DNA from: a virus
DNA: 64,000 bases
Virus record (IMG/VR): IMGVR_UViG_3300025738_000001
Direction: 5' to 3' (one strand)
Shown here: piece by piece, positions 4,879 to 55,851 of the stretch
Position numbering within the stretch: the stretch's first letter is position 1
How the letters are laid out: each line of letters begins with the position of its first letter
Translations under genes and position numbers: made by a program
Notes under the pieces: model-generated
What the model was told of the DNA's origin: nothing
The model's database searches: none
Seen by the model: only the letters and a program-made list of their open reading frames with translations

Positions 4879-5310
4879 ATGATTAAGTGTATGATGTTAG
4901 TACTTACTATGTTTCTAGCTGGTATGGCTCACTCCTTGGAGCGTACAGCCGACTTTGCTAAGAACGAGTGGATGAGTTCATCAAACCAATGTAGTCATGA
5001 AAGTTCTCACGGTATGCATCCAGAGGTAATGGAGAAAGTCCAACAGTTGAGAGACTTTATGGGACACCCGTTAACTCTGACTTCTGCTTACCGGTGTGTG
5101 AGTCATCCTATAGAGGCTAGGAAGACTAAGCCAGGTCAGCACAGTAAAGGCCTGGCAGTTGATATAGCAGTAGAGGATGAGTACATGGCAGCGAAGGTAA
5201 TCAAGTATGCTCTAACCAGACTTGATGTAGTAGGCTTCGCATATAGTAAAAAAATGAGGTTCGTCCATCTGGACTGGCGCAATGGGGATACTGTAACATG
5301 GAATTATTAA
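4879..5310 (+). CDS. Endolysin, peptidase M15 family (zinc D-Ala-D-Ala carboxypeptidase-like / L-Ala-D-Glu peptidase-like) with N-terminal signal or SAR segment
   Basis: H-x6-D zinc motif (QHSKGLAVD) plus FVHLDWR and TSAYRC, as in Peptidase_M15_3. Hydrophobic N-terminus MIKCMMLVLTMFLAGMAHS. Confidence 0.85.
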   Translation: MIKCMMLVLTMFLAGMAHSLERTADFAKNEWMSSSNQCSHESSHGMHPEVMEKVQQLRDFMGHPLTLTSAYRCVSHPIEARKTKPGQHSKGLAVDIAVEDEYMAAKVIKYALTRLDVVGFAYSKKMRFVHLDWRNGDTVTWNY

Positions 5311-5876: not shown

Positions 5877-6098
5877 TTAAGGTTCTTGCAACTCTGCGTT
5901 ACTTGTTTCTATATCTAGCTCTATATACTGAATAATCTTAACCAGTAATTTAGGGTGTACTGTAGTTTCAGTTAGGCTATTATCAATTTGTGAGTGCCTA
6001 CTTACTTTTTGTAATTCGATTCCTTCGACACTATCTAAGTATTCTACTTCATACTTCCCTTCGTCCAGTTCTAATGTAATTGTGTGTATTGTGCTCAT
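5877..6098 (-). CDS. Hypothetical acidic protein (73 aa), antisense to the late operon
   Basis: ORF track; RBS gagg before the ATG. First gene of the leftward island. Confidence 0.55.
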   Translation of the reverse strand: MSTIHTITLELDEGKYEVEYLDSVEGIELQKVSRHSQIDNSLTETTVHPKLLVKIIQYIELDIETSNAELQEP

Positions 6099-45752: not shown

Positions 45753-46771
45753 AGTTGCTCCAATTGATAATTGTCATACCATTTCTTAATGAAGTACTCA
45801 ATCTTCTTCATATCATACTCAATAGATGTGCCTTCTTTGCCTTTACCTTGAGCGGCTAAGTGAACACGACGCATGGCTTTAAGTACATTTCCCAAGTCGA
45901 AGTCATTATCAACCAGTGCTTTGATTACATCACCAGTTTCAAATTGAACCTTGATAACCTGAGGCGTAACAGTTATACAGTTAGCTGCTGGAACCAACAC
46001 TTCTAGTTGATAGTAAGACGAGCTTCCTCCATCTGACTTAACCTCACCTTTATCACATTCAGGCTTAATCTTGTTAAGCACTATTGGGGCTCCTGGACCA
46101 AAGATACATTCCTTACCAAGAGTATCAGTTTCAGTTTTACCCTCAATGTCGCCGCAGCATTTAGCTATGACCTGTTGATTGGCTTCTTTAACAGCATCAA
46201 CGGCTTGGTTAAATATTCCGACACTATCCAACTTAGACTTCTCGAAGAACTTCTTACGGTCTTCTGCATTGACTAGCCAATTGTCTATACCTTGCTCATG
46301 TACTTTGTTGATGGAGTCTTGCACAGCGACTTTAGCGCCTTGGTCTATAAGCTTAGATATCCTAGCGTTAACTTCCTTGGCTTTCCCCAAGTCAATAGGC
46401 ATAGTTTGCTCCGTAGCAAAGAATCTAGCCTTGTCTTCTTCAAAGTTCTGCTGACGTATTTTATCCAAGTCGGCTAGGTTGCCATAGTACTGAGCTTTCT
46501 CAGCATTAGACATGTTGTGTACGTTAGTTACTGCACCTTCAAGTTGTACCTTACTAACGAATTGCCAGTTAATTTCCTTCAAGTCCAAGTTATTGCCTCC
46601 TACCGCATAAGGGAAGCCTTTGGTTAATGCCTTGTTACGCATTTCATCAATAGTAGGCATTGGGTCATCTTCTGTGAAGTACCATGAATTAGTGCCACTA
46701 CACAGCGCATACTTGCTATGTAGTTTATGAGTATAGAGTTTGTATATTGTAGTCATTAACGGATGCTCCAT
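45749..46771 (-). CDS. Hypothetical protein with C-terminal DUF3310-like domain
   Basis: C-terminus DGGSSSYYQL...GDVIKAL...FDLGNVLKAMRRV...KGKEG...YDMKKIEYFI resembles the DUF3310 pattern (from memory). Confidence 0.6.
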   Translation of the reverse strand: MEHPLMTTIYKLYTHKLHSKYALCSGTNSWYFTEDDPMPTIDEMRNKALTKGFPYAVGGNNLDLKEINWQFVSKVQLEGAVTNVHNMSNAEKAQYYGNLADLDKIRQQNFEEDKARFFATEQTMPIDLGKAKEVNARISKLIDQGAKVAVQDSINKVHEQGIDNWLVNAEDRKKFFEKSKLDSVGIFNQAVDAVKEANQQVIAKCCGDIEGKTETDTLGKECIFGPGAPIVLNKIKPECDKGEVKSDGGSSSYYQLEVLVPAANCITVTPQVIKVQFETGDVIKALVDNDFDLGNVLKAMRRVHLAAQGKGKEGTSIEYDMKKIEYFIKKWYDNYQLEQL

Positions 46772-47370
46772 TGAGTGTGATTCCAGTCCTGCAACATGGC
46801 AGAGATTTCATACCAGTCATGAGCACATATGGCTTCTTGGCGGTACGGACGGTTATGTGGTTGTTTAAGTAAGATACAGCTGTCGTACCCTGCATCCATT
46901 ACATCAGAGATATTCTGGTACTTATCATCAACGAATAAGTCAATGGTATGTGTCATGGCTATCTCTTGAATAGCAGTCACCTTGGATTCATTAAACCCAA
47001 CGAACTTAATCTCTTCAAAGATGTCACCGAACACATGGTATAAGTTAGCCTTGCGTAGTGCATGTACCTGAGGGTCTAAGCCACACGCGGTTACACAGAA
47101 TATGTCATATCCCTGCTGAACTAACTTGGTTAACACTCGACGTGCTCCTGGGAGTCCATCAAGAGCGCCACACTGCCAGCTTCCCATGAAAGCTTCTAGT
47201 ACTTCTCTATCCTGTCCCTTCTCAATGTCGAGCCATTCACACAGGTCCCAGTCCAGTGATTTACCCGTGATTGATTTACCGTGATGATGATTGAAGAATT
47301 CACGAACCCTCGAACCAAAGTCCAAGATAGTGTCATCCACATCAACAACAATTGCTTTACGTAATGTCAT
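46756..47370 (-). CDS. HAD-superfamily phosphatase (5'(3')-deoxyribonucleotidase-like)
   Basis: Motif I VVDVDDT (DxDxT) and motif IV LFVDDK. Start set at Met23 (RBS agaggaa); the longer track ORF adds an unlikely leader. Confidence 0.75.
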   Translation of the reverse strand: MTLRKAIVVDVDDTILDFGSRVREFFNHHHGKSITGKSLDWDLCEWLDIEKGQDREVLEAFMGSWQCGALDGLPGARRVLTKLVQQGYDIFCVTACGLDPQVHALRKANLYHVFGDIFEEIKFVGFNESKVTAIQEIAMTHTIDLFVDDKYQNISDVMDAGYDSCILLKQPHNRPYRQEAICAHDWYEISAMLQDWNHTQWSIR

Positions 47371-47532
47371 AATGCATTCCTCTAAAAGTATATAAAATAT
47401 GCCCATTTTACGCCTGGGCAGGCGACTAGGATTCACACCTAATTCTATTGATTAATCTTAAAGTCCGTCAACTGGGACTATTGACCAAATGACATGCCAC
47501 GAAGGGACTAACAGTGCTGACGATGGTGAATT

Positions 47533-47736
47533 CTATTCAGGACCAGTAATGGTCTTCTTCGGTTTGGTTTTAGACTTAGCCTTAATCTCTACTTCTTCCC
47601 GTGGGGGATTAGCAGTGATTAGAGACTGCGCCTGTGCTAAGGCTAATGCTGCTTGGGCCAACTCTAACGCTTCATGCGGCTTGTTAGATACTGTTGACTT
47701 CTGCGCCAATGTTTCTACTTGCTGTACTAAGTTCAT
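47533..47736 (-). CDS. Small helical, K-rich protein (67 aa)
   Basis: Internal Met64 of track ORF 47533..47925. The upstream part of that ORF overlaps tRNA-Cys. RBS-like aaggg. Confidence 0.45.
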   Translation of the reverse strand: MNLVQQVETLAQKSTVSNKPHEALELAQAALALAQAQSLITANPPREEVEIKAKSKTKPKKTITGPE

Positions 47737-47762
47737 AATGAACCCTTTTGGTAGTGAATGTT

Positions 47763-47837
47763 TGGAGCAGGATGGGAGAATCGAACTCCCGCTTAGATGA
47801 TTTGCAATCAACCCTCTTTCCACTTGAGTAATCCTGC
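47763..47837 (-). tRNA. tRNA-Cys (GCA), CCA encoded
   Basis: Hand fold: acceptor GCAGGAT/ATCCTGC, D-loop with GG, anticodon loop TTGCAAA (one U-U in the stem), T-arm GGGAG-TTCGATT-CTCCC, discriminator U, CCA. Confidence 0.9.
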
Positions 47838-48191
47838 ATAGAATTGCTTTTTGATAAGCCAGAAGCATAGTAGAAAACTGGCATCTAAAACTCCCCGTGT
47901 TGGACATACGGTTCCACCTATTCACGGGCTAGTTAAAATTTGTTCAACACCCTTTGATAAACCAGAGGTGAGAGGAACTGGTACGAGGGTAGCGAACTCC
48001 CTTGTCAGGTGTAACCACCACCATTACGTGCTGAGGTTACGTCCTGAGTTGCGGCTCAGGTATCCTATTAGGATACGTCCAGTCGCGCTTTACTGGAATT
48101 ACCGAGCCATAATATTAGCTTGGGAACAGGTACGTAAGGATGCTTACGTGTTATCTGCAAGCCGCTCTTGCAAGCCTGCCCAAGTCTAAAC
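47838..48191 (-). ncRNA. ORF-free hairpin-rich RNA segment inside the tRNA array
   Basis: Perfect hairpins at 48043-48060, 48060-48076, 48132-48149 and 48156-48172 (6-7 bp each). T-arm-like AGGGA-GTTCGCT-ACCCT followed by CGTACCA ends near 47979. Butt-joined to flanking RNAs. Confidence 0.3.
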
Positions 48192-48273
48192 TGGTCGGAG
48201 TGACGGGGTACTCTCCCGCACGTAGGCAATTAAAGGCCTGCTCTTTGAGGTATCGTATTTGAGCTACACTCCG
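48192..48273 (-). ncRNA. Non-canonical tRNA-like RNA (82 nt, ACCA encoded, 8-nt anticodon-like loop CUUUAAUU)
   Basis: Perfect 7-bp acceptor CGGAGTG/CACTCCG + A + CCA; UA-GCUC...GAGC D-stem with a 17-nt loop lacking GG; 4-bp AGGC/GCCU stem; T-arm GCGGG-AGAGUAC-CCCGU lacks TTC. Confidence 0.45.
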
Positions 48274-48279
48274 TGAATT

Positions 48280-48381
48280 TGGTGACTCGTATCGTGAGCC
48301 TAACGGGATGGACCCATACCTGCGTTTACTACTAGACGGGCTTGATTCGCCATAAGGTTACTAGGGCCTTAAGTAAGTAAC
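48280..48381 (-). ncRNA. Spacer RNA ending in a minihelix + ACCA
   Basis: 3' end GGCTC-ACGATAC-GAGTC-ACCA (5-bp stem, 7-nt loop), directly followed by AAUUCA and the next tRNA-like RNA. Confidence 0.3.
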
Positions 48382-48457
48382 TGGTAGCAATGACTGGGGT
48401 TGAACCAGCGACCTTCCGCGTATGAAGCGGACGCTCTCCCTACTGAGCTACATTGCT
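48382..48457 (-). tRNA. tRNA-Met (CAT) (elongator Met or Ile2 cannot be distinguished), CCA encoded
   Basis: Hand fold, 76 nt: acceptor AGCAATG/CATTGCT, D-arm GCTC-AGTAGGGA-GAGC, anticodon arm TCCGC-TTCATAC-GCGGA, T-arm GCTGG-TTCAACC-CCAGT, ACCA. Confidence 0.9.
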
Positions 48458-48463
48458 ATTGTT

Positions 48464-48575
48464 TGGTAGTCCTTAACGGGGACTAGTCGGGAGGTACGTA
48501 TTGCCTACGGGTCTTAGCTTCTTTACGTCTAGGTTCGAATGTTGCCATCTACTTCGTGCCGCGTCTGCTAGTTAC
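48464..48575 (-). ncRNA. Spacer RNA ending in a minihelix + ACCA
   Basis: 3' end AGTCC-CCGTTAA-GGACT-ACCA (48464-48484), followed by AACAAU and tRNA-Met. Confidence 0.3.
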
Positions 48576-48648
48576 TGGGGGATAGGGTGGAATCGAACCA
48601 CCTTAGTCGACTTCTGCCCAAACTACGATGTTCTCGCGTTGCTATCCC
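48576..48648 (-). ncRNA. Degenerate tRNA-like RNA (73 nt)
   Basis: Acceptor GGGATAG/CTATCCC and canonical T-arm GGTGG-TTCGATT-CCACC. Position 8 is C, the D-stem is 3 bp, and the anticodon region is a bulged 7-bp stem with loop GCAGAAG. No readable anticodon. Confidence 0.45.
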
Positions 48649-48750
48649 ATAATTAGTTCCCTTACATAACATATGAAGGGTAATATGGCCGTTCTTACAA
48701 TTGGTCTTACTCTGCCTTTATAAGAGCTAAAGGTAACCCATCCTGGAGGA

Positions 48751-48942
48751 TTAGATATGCAAGTAGATGCCAACACGGGCAAATAACATGCTAATTTTTG
48801 CACGACCTTTAAACTGAGCATCGGCCTTGTGCTTACGCAACATACGTTTAACCGCAGGGCTACGCTGTGATAATTCTTCAGGTGTTGAACGTACTTCATC
48901 AAAGCCTTCAACTGTTACTGCTTTATTTTTACGAAATTCCAT
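48751..48942 (-). CDS. Small basic protein (63 aa)
   Basis: ORF track; RBS gggagaag 4-5 nt before the ATG. Confidence 0.55.
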   Translation of the reverse strand: MEFRKNKAVTVEGFDEVRSTPEELSQRSPAVKRMLRKHKADAQFKGRAKISMLFARVGIYLHI

Positions 48943-49156
48943 TGTCTTCTCCCGGTATTGGACCGCTTAATAGTTCTACCAGTTTGGTAGCGCGTGTGAA
49001 TACTTCTACGATTTTTTTAGATTCAGGACTGCCTAATTCGGCCTCAGCTACAATGTCCTGATAACGGGCACGGAACAGTACGAACTTGCCTCCGCCATCA
49101 GCACCTGAGAATACATCAAGCATGATTTGGATGTCGTCATCTGTTACTTGGGCCAT
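48929..49156 (-). CDS. Hypothetical acidic protein (75 aa)
   Basis: ORF track; start overlaps the ligase stop by 13 nt. Confidence 0.55.
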   Translation of the reverse strand: MAQVTDDDIQIMLDVFSGADGGGKFVLFRARYQDIVAEAELGSPESKKIVEVFTRATKLVELLSGPIPGEDNGIS

Positions 49157-50538
49157 ACACCCTCCGGTACAGTTAAACCAAAGTCATCTGCTATCTGCTT
49201 CCAATGACGGTCTTGGCTTTCACGCCATTGCACAACTTCACCAGTACAACCATCATGAGACAGTTGTAGTTCACGTAGCATTTTATAAGTGCAATCGTCA
49301 TACTCGATAGGTATATCCGATTTACGTAGAGCCTCTTGTACACCGTGATTAAACAGGCTGTTTCCTTCAATCTCGTCAGAGTACACGTCTTCTTTTATTA
49401 GTACGCCTACTGCACACATGCAGCCTTCATCATTACGATAGACACATTGGCCTTCATCGTCTTGAGCTGGTTTACCTTGCTTACGTAGATGGTTCACAAC
49501 TGTTGAGAATAATTCTTGTAATTCCATACTGACTCCTAAAAAGTCTGGTTCAGATTTGTCCTGACGCTCTTCCCGTACTTTGGGAATACGAATCAAGCCA
49601 TTCTTAGATGAGGGTTGTAAGCCTGCTACATGGTAAATCTTACCGATAGGGCTATCTGCTGTGTTATTAATACCTGCTTGGTATAGAGCCTCACATGAAT
49701 CATGAGTCCATCCTTTACCCGGCATGGCTTTCAGTTCTACACCGTTGGCGTATCGGAAGTATAGATTAGCAACTAAGCCCTTATACTTTCCAGTACCTTC
49801 TTCGAATGAGATACATTCCAAGTCAACATGCATACCCCGAACAATTTTCATTTGATGCCAATCTTTAGCGCCACATAGGTAACCTACGTTCTGCTTAAAC
49901 ACTGCACCTTCTTTACCTGCATTGATATGCTGTTCGGCAAAGTCTTGAGCTTCCACCCAGTTGTTGATAACAACATAAGGTAATATTTTAAAGTAAGCAC
50001 CATCGAACGCATCAATCAAGTCGGAATGACGGTCAGCATAATTAGTAGCACTGAATCCTTCTATGAACTCATTGACAGTAATAGCATCAAAGTGTGAGAT
50101 GTAGAGTCCTGCAGCAATAGCCGGTTGGTCACAAATGGAACCATCCTTCTTATCTACTTTGACTCGTAATGGTTTAACACGAAGAGGATTAATACAGCCA
50201 CCAAGTTCTTCAAGCGAACATTCATGAGTACTAAGTATCTCACCGAAGTATAAGCCTGGTTCTATTTGGGCCTGGAAGTAGCTCTCAGCTACATGATGCG
50301 TATTTGGCATAAGTTTACCGGTACGATTAAAGAGTCTCACCTCGCCATCGTCACGTACAGCCACGGCACAAAATACACCGTCTTCTTTTAACTGACCAAA
50401 CATAGGCCAAGATACTTTCTTGTGAAGAATACCTTGCTCTACTAATGGATTAACATCTTCGAAGTTCTTCACCAGTTGGTAAATCTTCTTCTCTTTACGA
50501 TGGTCTGCTGGCAAACCATAGAATTCAAATATATTCAT
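49144..50538 (-). CDS. ATP-dependent DNA ligase (T7-like core) with ~125-aa Cys-containing C-terminal extension
   Basis: Motif I LKEDG, motif IV KEGAVFK, motif V DWHQMKIV with T7-ligase-like spacing, and an OB-like LIRIPKVREER. Start set at Met26 (ATGA coupling to an upstream micro-ORF). Confidence 0.8.
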   Translation of the reverse strand: MNIFEFYGLPADHRKEKKIYQLVKNFEDVNPLVEQGILHKKVSWPMFGQLKEDGVFCAVAVRDDGEVRLFNRTGKLMPNTHHVAESYFQAQIEPGLYFGEILSTHECSLEELGGCINPLRVKPLRVKVDKKDGSICDQPAIAAGLYISHFDAITVNEFIEGFSATNYADRHSDLIDAFDGAYFKILPYVVINNWVEAQDFAEQHINAGKEGAVFKQNVGYLCGAKDWHQMKIVRGMHVDLECISFEEGTGKYKGLVANLYFRYANGVELKAMPGKGWTHDSCEALYQAGINNTADSPIGKIYHVAGLQPSSKNGLIRIPKVREERQDKSEPDFLGVSMELQELFSTVVNHLRKQGKPAQDDEGQCVYRNDEGCMCAVGVLIKEDVYSDEIEGNSLFNHGVQEALRKSDIPIEYDDCTYKMLRELQLSHDGCTGEVVQWRESQDRHWKQIADDFGLTVPEGVWPK

Positions 50539-50687
50539 CCTGCATATTCCTCGGGTGTGTTGCCGCCTTTGAAAGTTACCCATATGGTTACACAAGGTAG
50601 CGGATTGAAACAAATACGTTTGTTATAAGGTGACCAATGAACGCCTACCCAAAACGACGCTAATCGAAATATCATGCCTGCTTTCAT
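50535..50687 (-). CDS. Micro-ORF (50 aa), below the ORF-track cutoff
   Basis: Hand translation MKAGMIFRLASFWVGVHWSPYNKRICFNPLPCVTIWVTFKGGNTPEEYAG. RBS gaggtga 4 nt before the ATG; ATGA overlap with the ligase start. Confidence 0.55.
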   Translation of the reverse strand: MKAGMIFRLASFWVGVHWSPYNKRICFNPLPCVTIWVTFKGGNTPEEYAG

Positions 50688-51966: not shown

Positions 51967-52063
51967 GATGCCTCCTTACGGGTGATTGAGTGAATTGGTG
52001 CCCAGCGTTCCAACTTTTCAGCGTGGTTGGGGAACTAGATTATGACGCAACTCGGCATTGTTA

Positions 52064-52279
52064 GGGACGGCCAGGGGAATCGAACCCCTGTTAGAGACTA
52101 GGACATCAGTCACATGCCGTTAAGGTTAATTAGGCCTATGTGGATAGTTGCAACTACACACTAATCATCTGTTGGGGAATTAAACCCCAATGCTAGTTTC
52201 CTTTGCACCAAGCACCGACATTGTTCGGATTACGGGAAAGCCTACGATAGTAGCGCGCTCTATAAAGTAGCGCCGTCCC
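52064..52279 (-). ncRNA. 216-nt tRNA-like RNA: acceptor stem + T-arm closing a ~140-nt structured insert
   Basis: 8-bp perfect terminal pairing GGGACGGC/GCCGTCCC. T-arm AGGGG-TTCGATT-CCCCT next to the 3' strand. Internal T-arm-like GGGG-TTTAATT-CCCC at 52174-52188. 8 nt downstream of tRNA-Ser. Confidence 0.5.
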
Positions 52280-52287
52280 ATAATTAG

Positions 52288-52376
52288 TGGCGGAGGTAGC
52301 AGGACTTGAACCTGCACACCCTTTCGAGTGAATGAATTAGCAATCCATGACGATACCAATTTCGCTTGATACCTCC
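52288..52376 (-). tRNA. tRNA-Ser (GCT), class II, CCA encoded
   Basis: Hand fold, 89 nt: acceptor GGAGGTA/TACCTCC, anticodon arm ATGGA-TTGCTAA-TTCAT, long variable arm CACTC-GAAA-GGGTG, T-arm GCAGG-TTCAAGT-CCTGC, GCCA. Confidence 0.9.
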
Positions 52377-52736
52377 TAAATTTGGTGAGAATTTACTATT
52401 TAAAGACCGCGATTATCTACTATAACGCTCTGAATCTGAGTGCATCTTCATCATGTATCATAGCGGACTATCCTTATCAGGACTCTCGAACATAGTCTGT
52501 TATACCTATTGAAGGGCTGCACTCTTGCCCCGCTTTAGCTACCTATTGAATTTGTCTTAGTTTTCCTAATCCAGCCCTGTGAAAGAGACTGGGCTATCTT
52601 CTCAGAGATAGTTTGAGAGGTTGCGCTCTCTTACACTTATTTTAAAGTGGTGTGTGACTCAAACCACTGTTACTCCAAGGGCCATCCGCCTACCGAAATA
52701 GGAACTTATGAATCTTACACGCGAGGAGCCAATTAA

Positions 52737-52749
52737 CCAACGAAGTTGG
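52737..52749 (-). promoter_or_regulatory. N4-type promoter-like hairpin CCAAC-GAA-GTTGG
   Basis: Perfect stem and GAA loop on the + strand, followed by CTA. Heads the 360-nt ORF-free leader of the tRNA-Ser array. Confidence 0.45.
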
Positions 52750-52842
52750 CTAAAACTGCCAGACCTTCACCGATACCCAAGCTGCTAATAAGCAACCTGC
52801 ATAGATACCGAAGATGGTTCCAATTTTCTTTAAACTATTCAT
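52750..52842 (-). CDS. Micro-ORF (30 aa hydrophobic peptide)
   Basis: Hand translation MNSLKKIGTIFGIYAGCLLAAWVSVKVWQF. TAATG overlap with the upstream stop. Confidence 0.35.
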   Translation of the reverse strand: MNSLKKIGTIFGIYAGCLLAAWVSVKVWQF

Positions 52843-55503: not shown

Positions 55504-55851
55504 AATTAGTATATCCCCATTTCCAACTCTTGTGATATGTGGTGAGTATTGGTTATTTTGCTCGTATAAGGCATCGCCAAGAGCTTAGGCCACTATAGCC
55601 TTCAGTTGTTAATAGTCTATCTTATGCAGGGTGTTTCACCGGTTCATAGTAGACTCAGTAGATTCGCTTCTTCAGCGTTAGCGTTGAGCACAACGATTTT
55701 GGTACGTCTCGCACCAGTTCTTAATGCACTTACTACGGAGTGTAGCCCGTTACTCTAATGCATAAGCAGCCACCAGTTAGTTGTAGGAAGAAGTTACACC
55801 TTCTTCTATAGAAGATATGTTAGTTATTTACATACACCAATATGCACAATA

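Follow-up and report, generated by a model that had tools for sequence, protein, structure and literature searches.

A conserved island of structured RNAs among the tRNA genes of an uncultured N4-like phage

Introduction

What does a phage keep in a transfer RNA (tRNA) locus besides tRNAs? The common view of phage tRNA genes is limited to two roles, help with codon usage and the replacement of tRNAs that host defenses have cut. The question is raised by a 64,000-nucleotide (nt) stretch of viral DNA, IMG/VR record IMGVR_UViG_3300025738_000001, here called the window. Its minus-strand interval 47763-48648 (886 nt, ~0.9 kb) is gene-free and carries two tRNAs, two non-decoding tRNA-shaped RNAs and several small folded elements. 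The locus is real, and it is not an ordinary tRNA cluster. It is a partly new RNA locus, with at least three motifs absent from Rfam: a three-way junction, an H-type pseudoknot with an A-rich loop, and an invariant 38-mer. The reading that we favor, with modest confidence, is that of an RNA island that is co-transcribed, punctuated by RNase P sites, and loaded with conserved structured RNAs as cargo.

The array and its conservation in related phages

An initial annotation, made from the letters of the sequence, had described the interval as an open reading frame (ORF)-free, minus-strand locus in which tRNAs are mixed with non-tRNA structured RNAs. ARAGORN, Rfam and RNA folds bear this out, and the ORFs that overlap the array had no match in PHROGs. 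The tRNAs, the two tRNA-shaped RNAs (modules 1 and 7), both hairpin-ACCA ends and the 6-nt spacers were all recovered in the order and at the positions proposed. The accompanying remark that no gap between modules exceeds 6 nt is a consequence of how the module borders were drawn and is not independent evidence.

The array was compared with related phage sequences. L003 is an 81.8-kb ENA contig whose HAD-family protein is 60% identical to that of the window; L144 and L145 were reached via the 63-amino acid (aa) ORF just upstream of the array (67% and 71% protein identity, respectively). Between species, the flanking genes show 55-73% protein identity and 41-56% identity at third codon positions, depending on gene and relative; for the window and L145 the third-position values are 41-43%. 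The RNA modules, by comparison, are 85-95% identical between species, the junction being 85% identical to L144 over 87 nt. Because the modules are far more identical than the third codon positions of the flanking genes, the non-coding modules appear to be under stronger constraint than their protein-coding neighbors. Covariation, which the initial annotation had suggested seeking in related phages, was seen in the junction, the pseudoknot stems and the hairpins of the spacer RNAs X1 and X2. Cross-species conservation and covariation together thus indicate that several of the non-tRNA parts are under selection as RNA of the minus strand. The strain variants L147-L149 have no substitutions in the array and hence add no covariation.

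The most strongly conserved parts lie in a 354-nt segment between module 7 and tRNA-Cys, where the following elements were delineated.

48115-48189, minus strand: three-way-junction RNA 3WJ-1, 75 nt, with a 14-base pair (bp) bulged outer stem, two hairpins and the invariant junction AUAAC
48053-48108, minus strand: predicted second junction, GGCUCGG/CUGAGCC enclosing UCCAGU/ACUGGA and GUAUCCU-AAU-AGGAUAC, from a minimum free energy (MFE) fold
47984-48047, minus strand: 5' part of the Y module, consisting of a hairpin, CCUGACAAGG, and hairpin A (GGGAG-UUCGCUA-CCCUC)
47948-47982, minus strand: H-type pseudoknot Y-B1, with stem S1 ACCAG/CUGGU, A-rich loop UUAUCAAA, and stem S2 CACCU/GGGUG
47893-47930, minus strand: nearly invariant 38-nt element AGCCCGUGAAUAGGUGGAACCGUAUGUCCAACACGGGG, with stem CCCGUG/CACGGG, lying between the pseudoknot copies
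47845-47882, minus strand: second pseudoknot Y-B2, with GCCAG/CUGGC, UUAUCAAA and UGCUU/AAGCA; direct repeat D3, pairing read from the sequence

The initial annotation had taken this segment for a string of hairpins. Its MFE fold is more stable than that of shuffled sequence (z = -2.71), and comparison with the relatives resolves it into discrete conserved modules instead, that is, the three-way junction, the pseudoknots and the 38-mer.

The junction, 3WJ-1, starts 3 nt past the CCA of module 7. In an alignment of three phage species (the window, L144 5455-5535 and L145 5636-5720), its 27 pairs were 97.5% paired and eight were changed on both sides. None of 500 shuffles did as well, and sliding the pairing partners reduced the paired fraction to 27-48%. 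Seven cells of the alignment are G.U pairs; on the opposite strand they would be C.A, which places the fold in the sense-strand RNA. In L144 the junction follows tRNA(CAU), and in L145 it sits in a tRNA-free block. A covariance model built from these three sequences, R1, recovered them by construction (84-104 bits), and an R1 search of ~119 kb of related sequence found no further copy. The junction proposed at 48053-48108 is weakly supported: manual comparison with L144 and L145 found only the motif AGUAAAGC..GAC in common.

The Y module has a core, TTCGCTRCC, that is shared with its flanks by the window, L003 (5043), L144 (5245) and L145 (5454). A hammerhead reading of this module was rejected, since neither the CUGAUGA nor the GAA positions of the core show conservation (the CUGAUGA-like string of L144 is not kept in the window, L003 or L145) and Rfam gave no match. 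Both stems of pseudoknot Y-B1 covary across the four phages.

Window: S1 ACCAG/CUGGU, S2 CACCU/GGGUG
L003: S1 CCAG/CUGG, S2 GCCUAC/GUAGGC
L144 and L145: S1 CGACU/AGUCG, S2 CCCC/GGGG

In every phage the two stems are parted by an A-rich loop of 8-10 nt. These comparisons overturn one assignment of the initial annotation, a T-arm-like element followed by CGTACCA that was read as a CCA tail. The letters ACCAG at 47982-47978 are the 5' arm of the covarying stem ACCAG/CUGGU, and in the relatives this arm is replaced as part of CGACU/AGUCG or CCAG/CUGG. The second pseudoknot, Y-B2, lies 7 nt upstream of tRNA-Cys and is orthologous to the L003 pseudoknot that precedes a tRNA-Cys remnant. Over 48 nt, the 38-nt element and its surroundings match L145 5579-5626 at 89.6% identity, and the 38-nt core has a single difference. 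As the MAFFT alignments of the Y and X modules were faulty, the pairings in these modules were checked by hand and with a script.

No non-tRNA module matched Rfam 15, either in the window (47300-49100, E<=10) or in the relatives (E<=5-10), and known small ribozymes and pseudoknot riboswitches (hammerhead, preQ1-I and others) likewise had no Rfam match in either. When the array was compared with 50,697 phage records by megablast and blastn, the only similarity was to tRNAs. Exact and degenerate pattern scans of IMG/VR, Joint Genome Institute (JGI) metagenomes and GTDB genomes returned the window's own contig or nothing. Some 120 loci collected with an over-loose pattern (L024-L143) were discarded as chance matches with no tRNAs nearby. 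The ligase homologues led to T7-like phages with a different gene order, and the cellular HAD homologues L009-L018 proved to be bacterial chromosome.

Hairpin-ACCA spacers and tRNA-shaped RNAs

The upstream half of the array holds two spacer RNAs and two tRNA-shaped RNAs.

48576-48648, minus strand: tRNA-shaped RNA 1 (module 1), by folding; 7-bp acceptor GGGAUAG/CUAUCCC, canonical T arm, CCA abutting the helix
48464-48575, minus strand: spacer RNA X1, 112 nt; its conserved 3' end, 48495-48464, reads ACCUCCCGACU, AGUCC-CCGUUAA-GGACU, ACCA
48280-48381, minus strand: spacer RNA X2, 102 nt; it ends in CCAUCCCGUUA, GGCUC-ACGAUAC-GAGUC, ACCA
48192-48273, minus strand: tRNA-shaped RNA 2 (module 7), complete cloverleaf with ACCA; fold z = -2.63

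The hairpin-ACCA ends occupy 48484-48464 in X1 and 48300-48280 in X2. The two spacers are paralogous; an alignment of their 3' ends gives UCCCG..(stem)-NCGNUAN-(stem)-ACCAAA, and three pairs of the 5-bp stems are changed on both sides, with pairing kept. An orthologue at ~4628-4662 of L003, CGUUACCUCCCGGCUA...GGAC-GUGAUAA-GUCC-ACCA, lies between two small ORFs and has the same flank and the ACCA, with the stem arms swapped (GGAC/GUCC). Because the loops CCGUUAA, ACGAUAC and GUGAUAA lack the T-loop signature and do not fit the T-loop motif, the X hairpins are not T-arm mimics. A small-peptide reading of X1 and X2 (ORFs of 21 and 17 codons with a common TAG) was rejected; the peptides are unrelated, and the conserved ACCTCCCG falls in different frames in X1 and L003. 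The initial annotation had proposed a 5-bp stem, a 7-nt loop and an encoded ACCA as the motif that unifies the non-tRNA members. The motif holds for the two paralogous spacers and one orthologue only; it does not extend to the 354-nt segment, where the ACCA is part of a stem, or to a counterpart of X in L144.

Module 1 has a perfect T arm, GGUGG-UUCGAUU-CCACC, and its CCA comes straight after the helix without a discriminator base. Its interior consists of a 4-bp/5-nt arm and a bulged stem with a tetraloop cap; it lacks a 7-nt anticodon loop, and its D loop has no GG. ARAGORN did not find it, and the best Rfam hit of an 86-nt search was tRNA-Sec at 20.1 bits, against a gathering threshold of 47, with the D and anticodon arms deleted. 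In module 7 every stem is intact: acceptor CGGAGUG/CACUCCG, D stem GCUC/GAGC, a 4-bp stem in the anticodon position, and T stem GCGGG/CCCGU. Its loops are those of no tRNA: the D loop has 17 nt, the loop on the anticodon-position stem has 8 nt, and the T loop reads AGAGUAC. ARAGORN again found nothing, and no tRNA-clan model matched at E<=10 even in a 95-nt search. Thus ~20 stem pairs of module 7 are intact, and tRNA identity is gone from every loop. Module 7 shares unit borders with the neighboring tRNA(CAU) (repeats D1 and D2); compared with that tRNA, both partners are changed in three pairs of the acceptor stem and one of the T stem, with pairing preserved.

A canonical tRNA should score above the gathering threshold and have a 5-bp/7-nt anticodon arm, a D loop with GG and a T loop of the form UUCRANY. 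Both modules fall short of this description, and standard tools do not resolve them, or the other extra modules, into ordinary tRNAs. A transfer-messenger RNA, standard or permuted, was rejected as well, since ARAGORN reported none and Rfam aligned only the 17-nt T arm. The initial description of modules 1 and 7 as degenerate tRNA-like RNAs was accurate in that their stems are intact, CCA is encoded and the shape is that of a tRNA; neither has a usable anticodon arm or elbow. From their predicted folds, modules 1 and 7 appear to be tRNA-derived scaffolds that keep the processing-relevant helix and CCA and have lost the decoding parts. A perfect 10-nt complementarity between X1 (48500-48509, CGUAGGCAAU) and module 7 (48221-48230, AUUGCCUACG) was also noted and set aside, as ~0.5 such matches are expected by chance in 1 kb and it is not significant alone.

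Signs of a common precursor

A scan of the minus strand for sigma-70-type sites found no promoter-like sequence within the array, and no intrinsic terminator was found there, which is consistent with co-transcription. Hairpins with a 5-bp stem and 7-nt loop and a CCA at most 8 nt away are enriched, with six matches in the 886 nt of the minus strand compared with a background of ~0.8/kb (53 in 64 kb). The Poisson probability is ~1e-4, and ~6e-3 when the two true tRNAs are left out. When the whole window was scanned for an acceptor stem, T arm and CCA at tRNA spacing, only its three tRNAs and modules 1 and 7 were found. The array has a period of ~184-191 nt, with module 1 and X1, tRNA(CAU) and X2, and module 7 and what follows it as successive units.

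At the upstream border, a translation start runs into the array.

48648-48664, minus strand: Shine-Dalgarno (SD)-like sequence, CTAATT and ATG, in the usual translation-start context; it runs into module 1 and gives only ATG GGA TAG

The 9-mer CTAATTATG occurs five times on the minus strand, at 55509, 52287, 50045, 48656 and 37640. The copies at 55509 and 37640 are real gene starts behind an SD sequence, and two copies, including that at 52287 in a second RNA region, stand at the 5' edge of tRNA-like elements. The first letter of module 1 is the G of the motif, and the larger tRNA-like element of the second region has the same start. Cleavage by RNase P at the 5' edge of such an element would fall inside the AUG of the CTAATTATG context.

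The tRNAs, the flanking genes and a second RNA region

The remaining features of the array are its two tRNAs and two short spacers.

48458-48463, minus strand: AACAAU spacer, from sequence
48382-48457, minus strand: tRNA with anticodon CAU and encoded ACCA; ARAGORN; Rfam 67.1 bits
48274-48279, minus strand: AAUUCA spacer, from sequence
47763-47837, minus strand: tRNA-Cys(GCA) with encoded CCA; ARAGORN; Rfam 57.7 bits; 91% identical to L003 5143-5220

Both tRNAs had been placed correctly by the initial annotation and were detected by ARAGORN and Rfam alike. Within the array, 47763-47837 and 48382-48457 are the only intervals called by the canonical tRNA test (RF00005; ARAGORN, or Infernal at a score of at least 29 bits). 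The CAU tRNA is tRNA-Met, or tRNA-Ile2 if the anticodon is lysidine-modified; it has a 76% identical orthologue in L144 (5380-5455), and its BLAST relatives in N4-like roseophages carry the annotation tRNA-Ile.

The window is that of an N4-like phage (Schitoviridae), with a 3131-aa virion RNA polymerase, a small phage RNA polymerase (RNAP2), a portal, a primase and a family-A DNA polymerase. Near-identical or identical contigs are present in three JGI metagenomes, the longest being 77.9 kb. Because the nearest cultured phages are less than 40% identical in a conserved ATPase, the phage appears to belong to an uncultured, deeply branching lineage of marine N4-like phages. The array lies in the middle (replication) gene block, on the same strand as the flanking DNA ligase and HAD/NT5C genes. 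Upstream are the DNA ligase gene (50613-49144, minus strand) and then two small ORFs; downstream are a 67-aa ORF and the HAD/NT5C phosphatase gene (47436-46756, minus strand).

Several observations concern these flanking genes. The window's HAD/NT5C phosphatase (46756-47436, minus strand) is 61% identical to a bacterial chromosomal gene from the same metagenome series that stands beside hemN, yihI and polA (loci L009-L018), which suggests that the gene is host-derived and points towards the host lineage. The DNA ligase (49144-50613, minus strand) has 489 aa; its relatives have ~305-345 aa and span only 68% of it. Its C-terminal part of ~125 residues (362-483) matches phrog_17693, a separate PHROG of unknown function. 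The region equivalent to this C-terminus is a separate 130-aa ORF in L003, and in strain L148 the ligase is split in two pieces. Just upstream of the HAD operon, L145 (5862-5900) and L020 (222-258) share a conserved hairpin with a compensated change (GTCCGG-CC-CGGAC and CTCCGG-CC-CGGAG, respectively) followed by TCTAAACGGGCAATTTTTTT; this is a candidate for an N4-type hairpin promoter or terminator. In the cultured N4-like Vibrio phage 1.026.O (NC_049430; L150), a feature annotated as 'tRNA-OTHER, anticodon ???' occupies 5947-6024, between HNH endonuclease genes and at the equivalent genome position, so undecodable tRNA-like genes may be more widespread in the N4-like family.

The window has a second ORF-poor RNA region at 51967-52750 on the minus strand, which contains its third tRNA.

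52293-52374, minus strand: tRNA-Ser(GCU); Rfam 33.8 bits; missed by ARAGORN

Behind this tRNA comes an element of 216 nt (52278-52063) that combines an acceptor-like stem of 8 bp, GGGACGGC/GCCGTCCC, with a perfect T arm; it has an insert of ~140 nt and no CCA. Its initial ~70 nt have a conserved counterpart in L003 (1348-1421) and could code for a small peptide (MGRRYFIERATIVG.. in one and MTTRHFIKLATIVG.. in the other). A separate 138-nt stretch at 52690-52554 has a counterpart of 76% identity in L145 (4055-4192), immediately before the tRNA-Tyr of that phage.

Discussion

How would such an array work? The island is most likely transcribed with the flanking small ORFs as one precursor, which host tRNA-processing enzymes would cut. 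Its parts would fall into three classes. The first consists of the two decoding tRNAs, Cys-GCA and CAU. The second consists of putative tRNA-derived scaffolds that lack the anticodon arm and elbow loops and keep every stem, the coaxial acceptor/T helix and the encoded CCA; the hairpin-ACCA ends of X1 and X2 would be placed in the same class. The third consists of the apparently autonomous conserved RNAs, that is, the 75-nt junction, the H-type pseudoknots with their A-rich loop, and the invariant 38-mer. Parts of the second class would offer what bacterial RNase P needs, a helix and then RCCA, and would act as punctuation: RNase P would cut at their 5' edges and 3' exonucleases would halt at CCA. 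Such trimming would give the neighboring RNAs defined, protected ends, and the RNAs of the third class would be the cargo set free by the cutting. A helix followed by ACCA was found in X1, X2, the L003 X and module 7; module 1 has CCA only. As in the T4 type of arrangement, the non-tRNA RNAs lie inside a same-strand phage tRNA cluster and have no promoter or terminator of their own in the sigma-70-type scan.

Several points weigh against this interpretation. The X counterpart in L144 is weaker, with flank and hairpin kept and ACCA absent. Of the 112- and 102-nt RNAs proposed by the initial annotation, the 3' hairpins are supported, but the whole molecules fold no more stably than shuffled sequence (z = +1.59 for X1 and +0.73 for X2). 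Because the junction, the pseudoknot and the 38-mer occur in L145 in a block with no tRNA, these elements are independent of tRNA punctuation there. Modules 1 and 7 were seen only in the window phage among the sequences compared and, being so confined, could be young pseudogenes whose stems have not yet decayed. Finally, the covariation comes from four lineages, L003-L008 being identical to each other in this region, and the pseudoknot partners were picked by eye.

The best-surviving alternative, which we nevertheless regard as doubtful, is a decaying tRNA cluster, in which modules 1 and 7, the hairpin-ACCA ends and the rest are functionless debris of duplication, internal deletion and homing-endonuclease shuffling. 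Copies of tRNAs are indeed internally deleted at this locus. L003 has an acceptor-only mini-helix at 5100-5143, GCAGGGU-(21 nt)-UCCCUGC-UCCCA, 3 nt upstream of an intact tRNA-Cys, and it looks like a tRNA-Cys copy with its interior removed. The order of the modules also varies from phage to phage, as does the set of tRNAs (Cys, Ser, Tyr, Asn, Pro); from this variation and the L003 remnant, the island appears to be a site of rapid rearrangement as well. In L019 a homing-endonuclease-like gene (160-669; I-HmuI NUMOD-like) lies directly upstream of, and overlaps, a shortened HAD gene, consistent with the region being a hotspot of endonuclease-driven mosaicism, and the lineage specificity of modules 1 and 7 also fits decay. 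On the other hand, debris would not be expected to retain the ~20 stem pairs of module 7 while all its loops diverged, or to show the compensated changes of the X hairpins and junction, or to be far better conserved than the synonymous sites of the flanking genes.

The modules might instead act at the DNA level or in cis, as N4-type hairpin promoters or terminators or as a replication or recombination site, and not as stable RNAs; for the locus as a whole we consider this unlikely. The N4-like phage LUZ7 has middle promoters in the form of GC-rich hairpins, placed ~15 bp before the start site, whose stems span 6 bp or more and whose loops have 3-4 nt (PMC9163698). The 354-nt segment has perfect hairpins with 3-4-nt loops, GTATCCT-AAT-AGGATAC and ACGTAAG-CATC-CTTACGT, the first of which (~48075-48059) has the geometry of an N4 promoter hairpin. 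The covarying hairpin and T-run that L145 and L020 share upstream of the HAD operon, and the position of the L003 X between two ORFs, also point this way. The junction hairpins, however, have sense-strand G.U pairs and loops of 4-7 nt; the seven G.U cells would be C.A mismatches on the template strand, the second junction hairpin of L145 has a 7-nt loop and a different sequence, and a nested three-way junction and pseudoknots are RNA-type architecture. A hairpin-promoter reading is possible for a simple hairpin or two but does not suit the junction or the pseudoknots.

A further reading, which seems to us rather improbable, is a counter-defense or host-takeover cassette in which the scaffolds and hairpin-ACCA ends sequester acceptor-end enzymes (defense nucleases, the CCA-adding enzyme or RNase P) and the junction and pseudoknot RNAs are new trans-acting small RNAs. 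That the scaffolds and hairpin-ACCA ends are decoys titrating tRNA-targeting nucleases or processing enzymes, or that the junction and pseudoknot RNAs neutralize a defense, gains something from the retention of the acceptor/T helix and CCA without the anticodon, and from phage tRNA loci being known battlegrounds with tRNA-cleaving defenses (PMC13096335). This idea, raised in part by the initial annotation, is quite improbable. An RNA that lures an anticodon nuclease should retain the anticodon loop, which neither scaffold has, and no defense-related protein partner was identified among the neighboring genes.

In sum, and on the RNA-island interpretation, this lineage appears to keep more non-tRNA than tRNA sequence under purifying selection in a tRNA island, and its tRNA-shaped scaffolds would retain only the parts needed for processing. 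If the released RNAs act in trans, they are new candidate regulatory or anti-defense RNAs in abundant marine N4-like phages.

Comparison with known systems places the locus among several familiar kinds of RNA. The phage T4 tRNA operon has stable species 1 and 2 RNAs (rnaC and rnaD) that are co-transcribed with its tRNAs. The window resembles it in being a phage tRNA cluster with butt-joined non-tRNA RNAs that would form a multi-unit precursor, matured here, we infer, by host RNase P and 3' trimming. Unlike the T4 operon, with which it has no sequence or Rfam kinship, it has more non-tRNA than tRNA modules and adds non-decoding tRNA-shaped scaffolds, a three-way junction and pseudoknots. GOLLD and ROOL are large ornate RNAs of phages and prophages, often beside tRNA genes, and both are in Rfam. 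They share with the window a long ORF-free structured RNA region that adjoins tRNAs in a phage genome; each is one large conserved fold, however, whereas the window locus is modular, its modules are shuffled between relatives, and the GOLLD and ROOL covariance models had no match over 47300-49100 (E<=10) or in the relatives. The hairpin promoters of N4-like phages (PMC9163698) come from the same phage family and are likewise short perfect hairpins in the middle region, but the supported structures of the window are multi-helix RNA folds with sense-strand G.U pairs.

Along with the T4 operon, the nearest analogues in function include the substrates of RNase P, which recognizes RCCA and processes phage C4 and M3 RNAs, 4.5S RNA and mRNAs; dimeric tRNA precursors have been described for T4 (PMC11143913). 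The short helix followed by ACCA in X1, X2 and the L003 X recalls the P1/P7 C4 antisense RNA precursor, the phi80 M3 RNA and the 4.5S precursor (PMC11143913), as do modules 1 and 7, each with CCA behind an acceptor/T helix of 12 bp. The X stems differ in having only 4-6 bp, and one orthologue lacks ACCA. The plant mitochondrial t-elements provide the precedent for tRNA-like punctuation (PMC1920247). Like them, modules 1 and 7 are non-decoding tRNA-like structures at RNA boundaries and putative processing signals; t-elements are organellar and flank mRNAs, whereas the window is that of a phage and the neighbors are mostly non-coding RNAs. If the processing model is true, the island would be a counterpart of tRNA punctuation in a bacterial virus and a natural design by which a single transcript yields several small RNAs.

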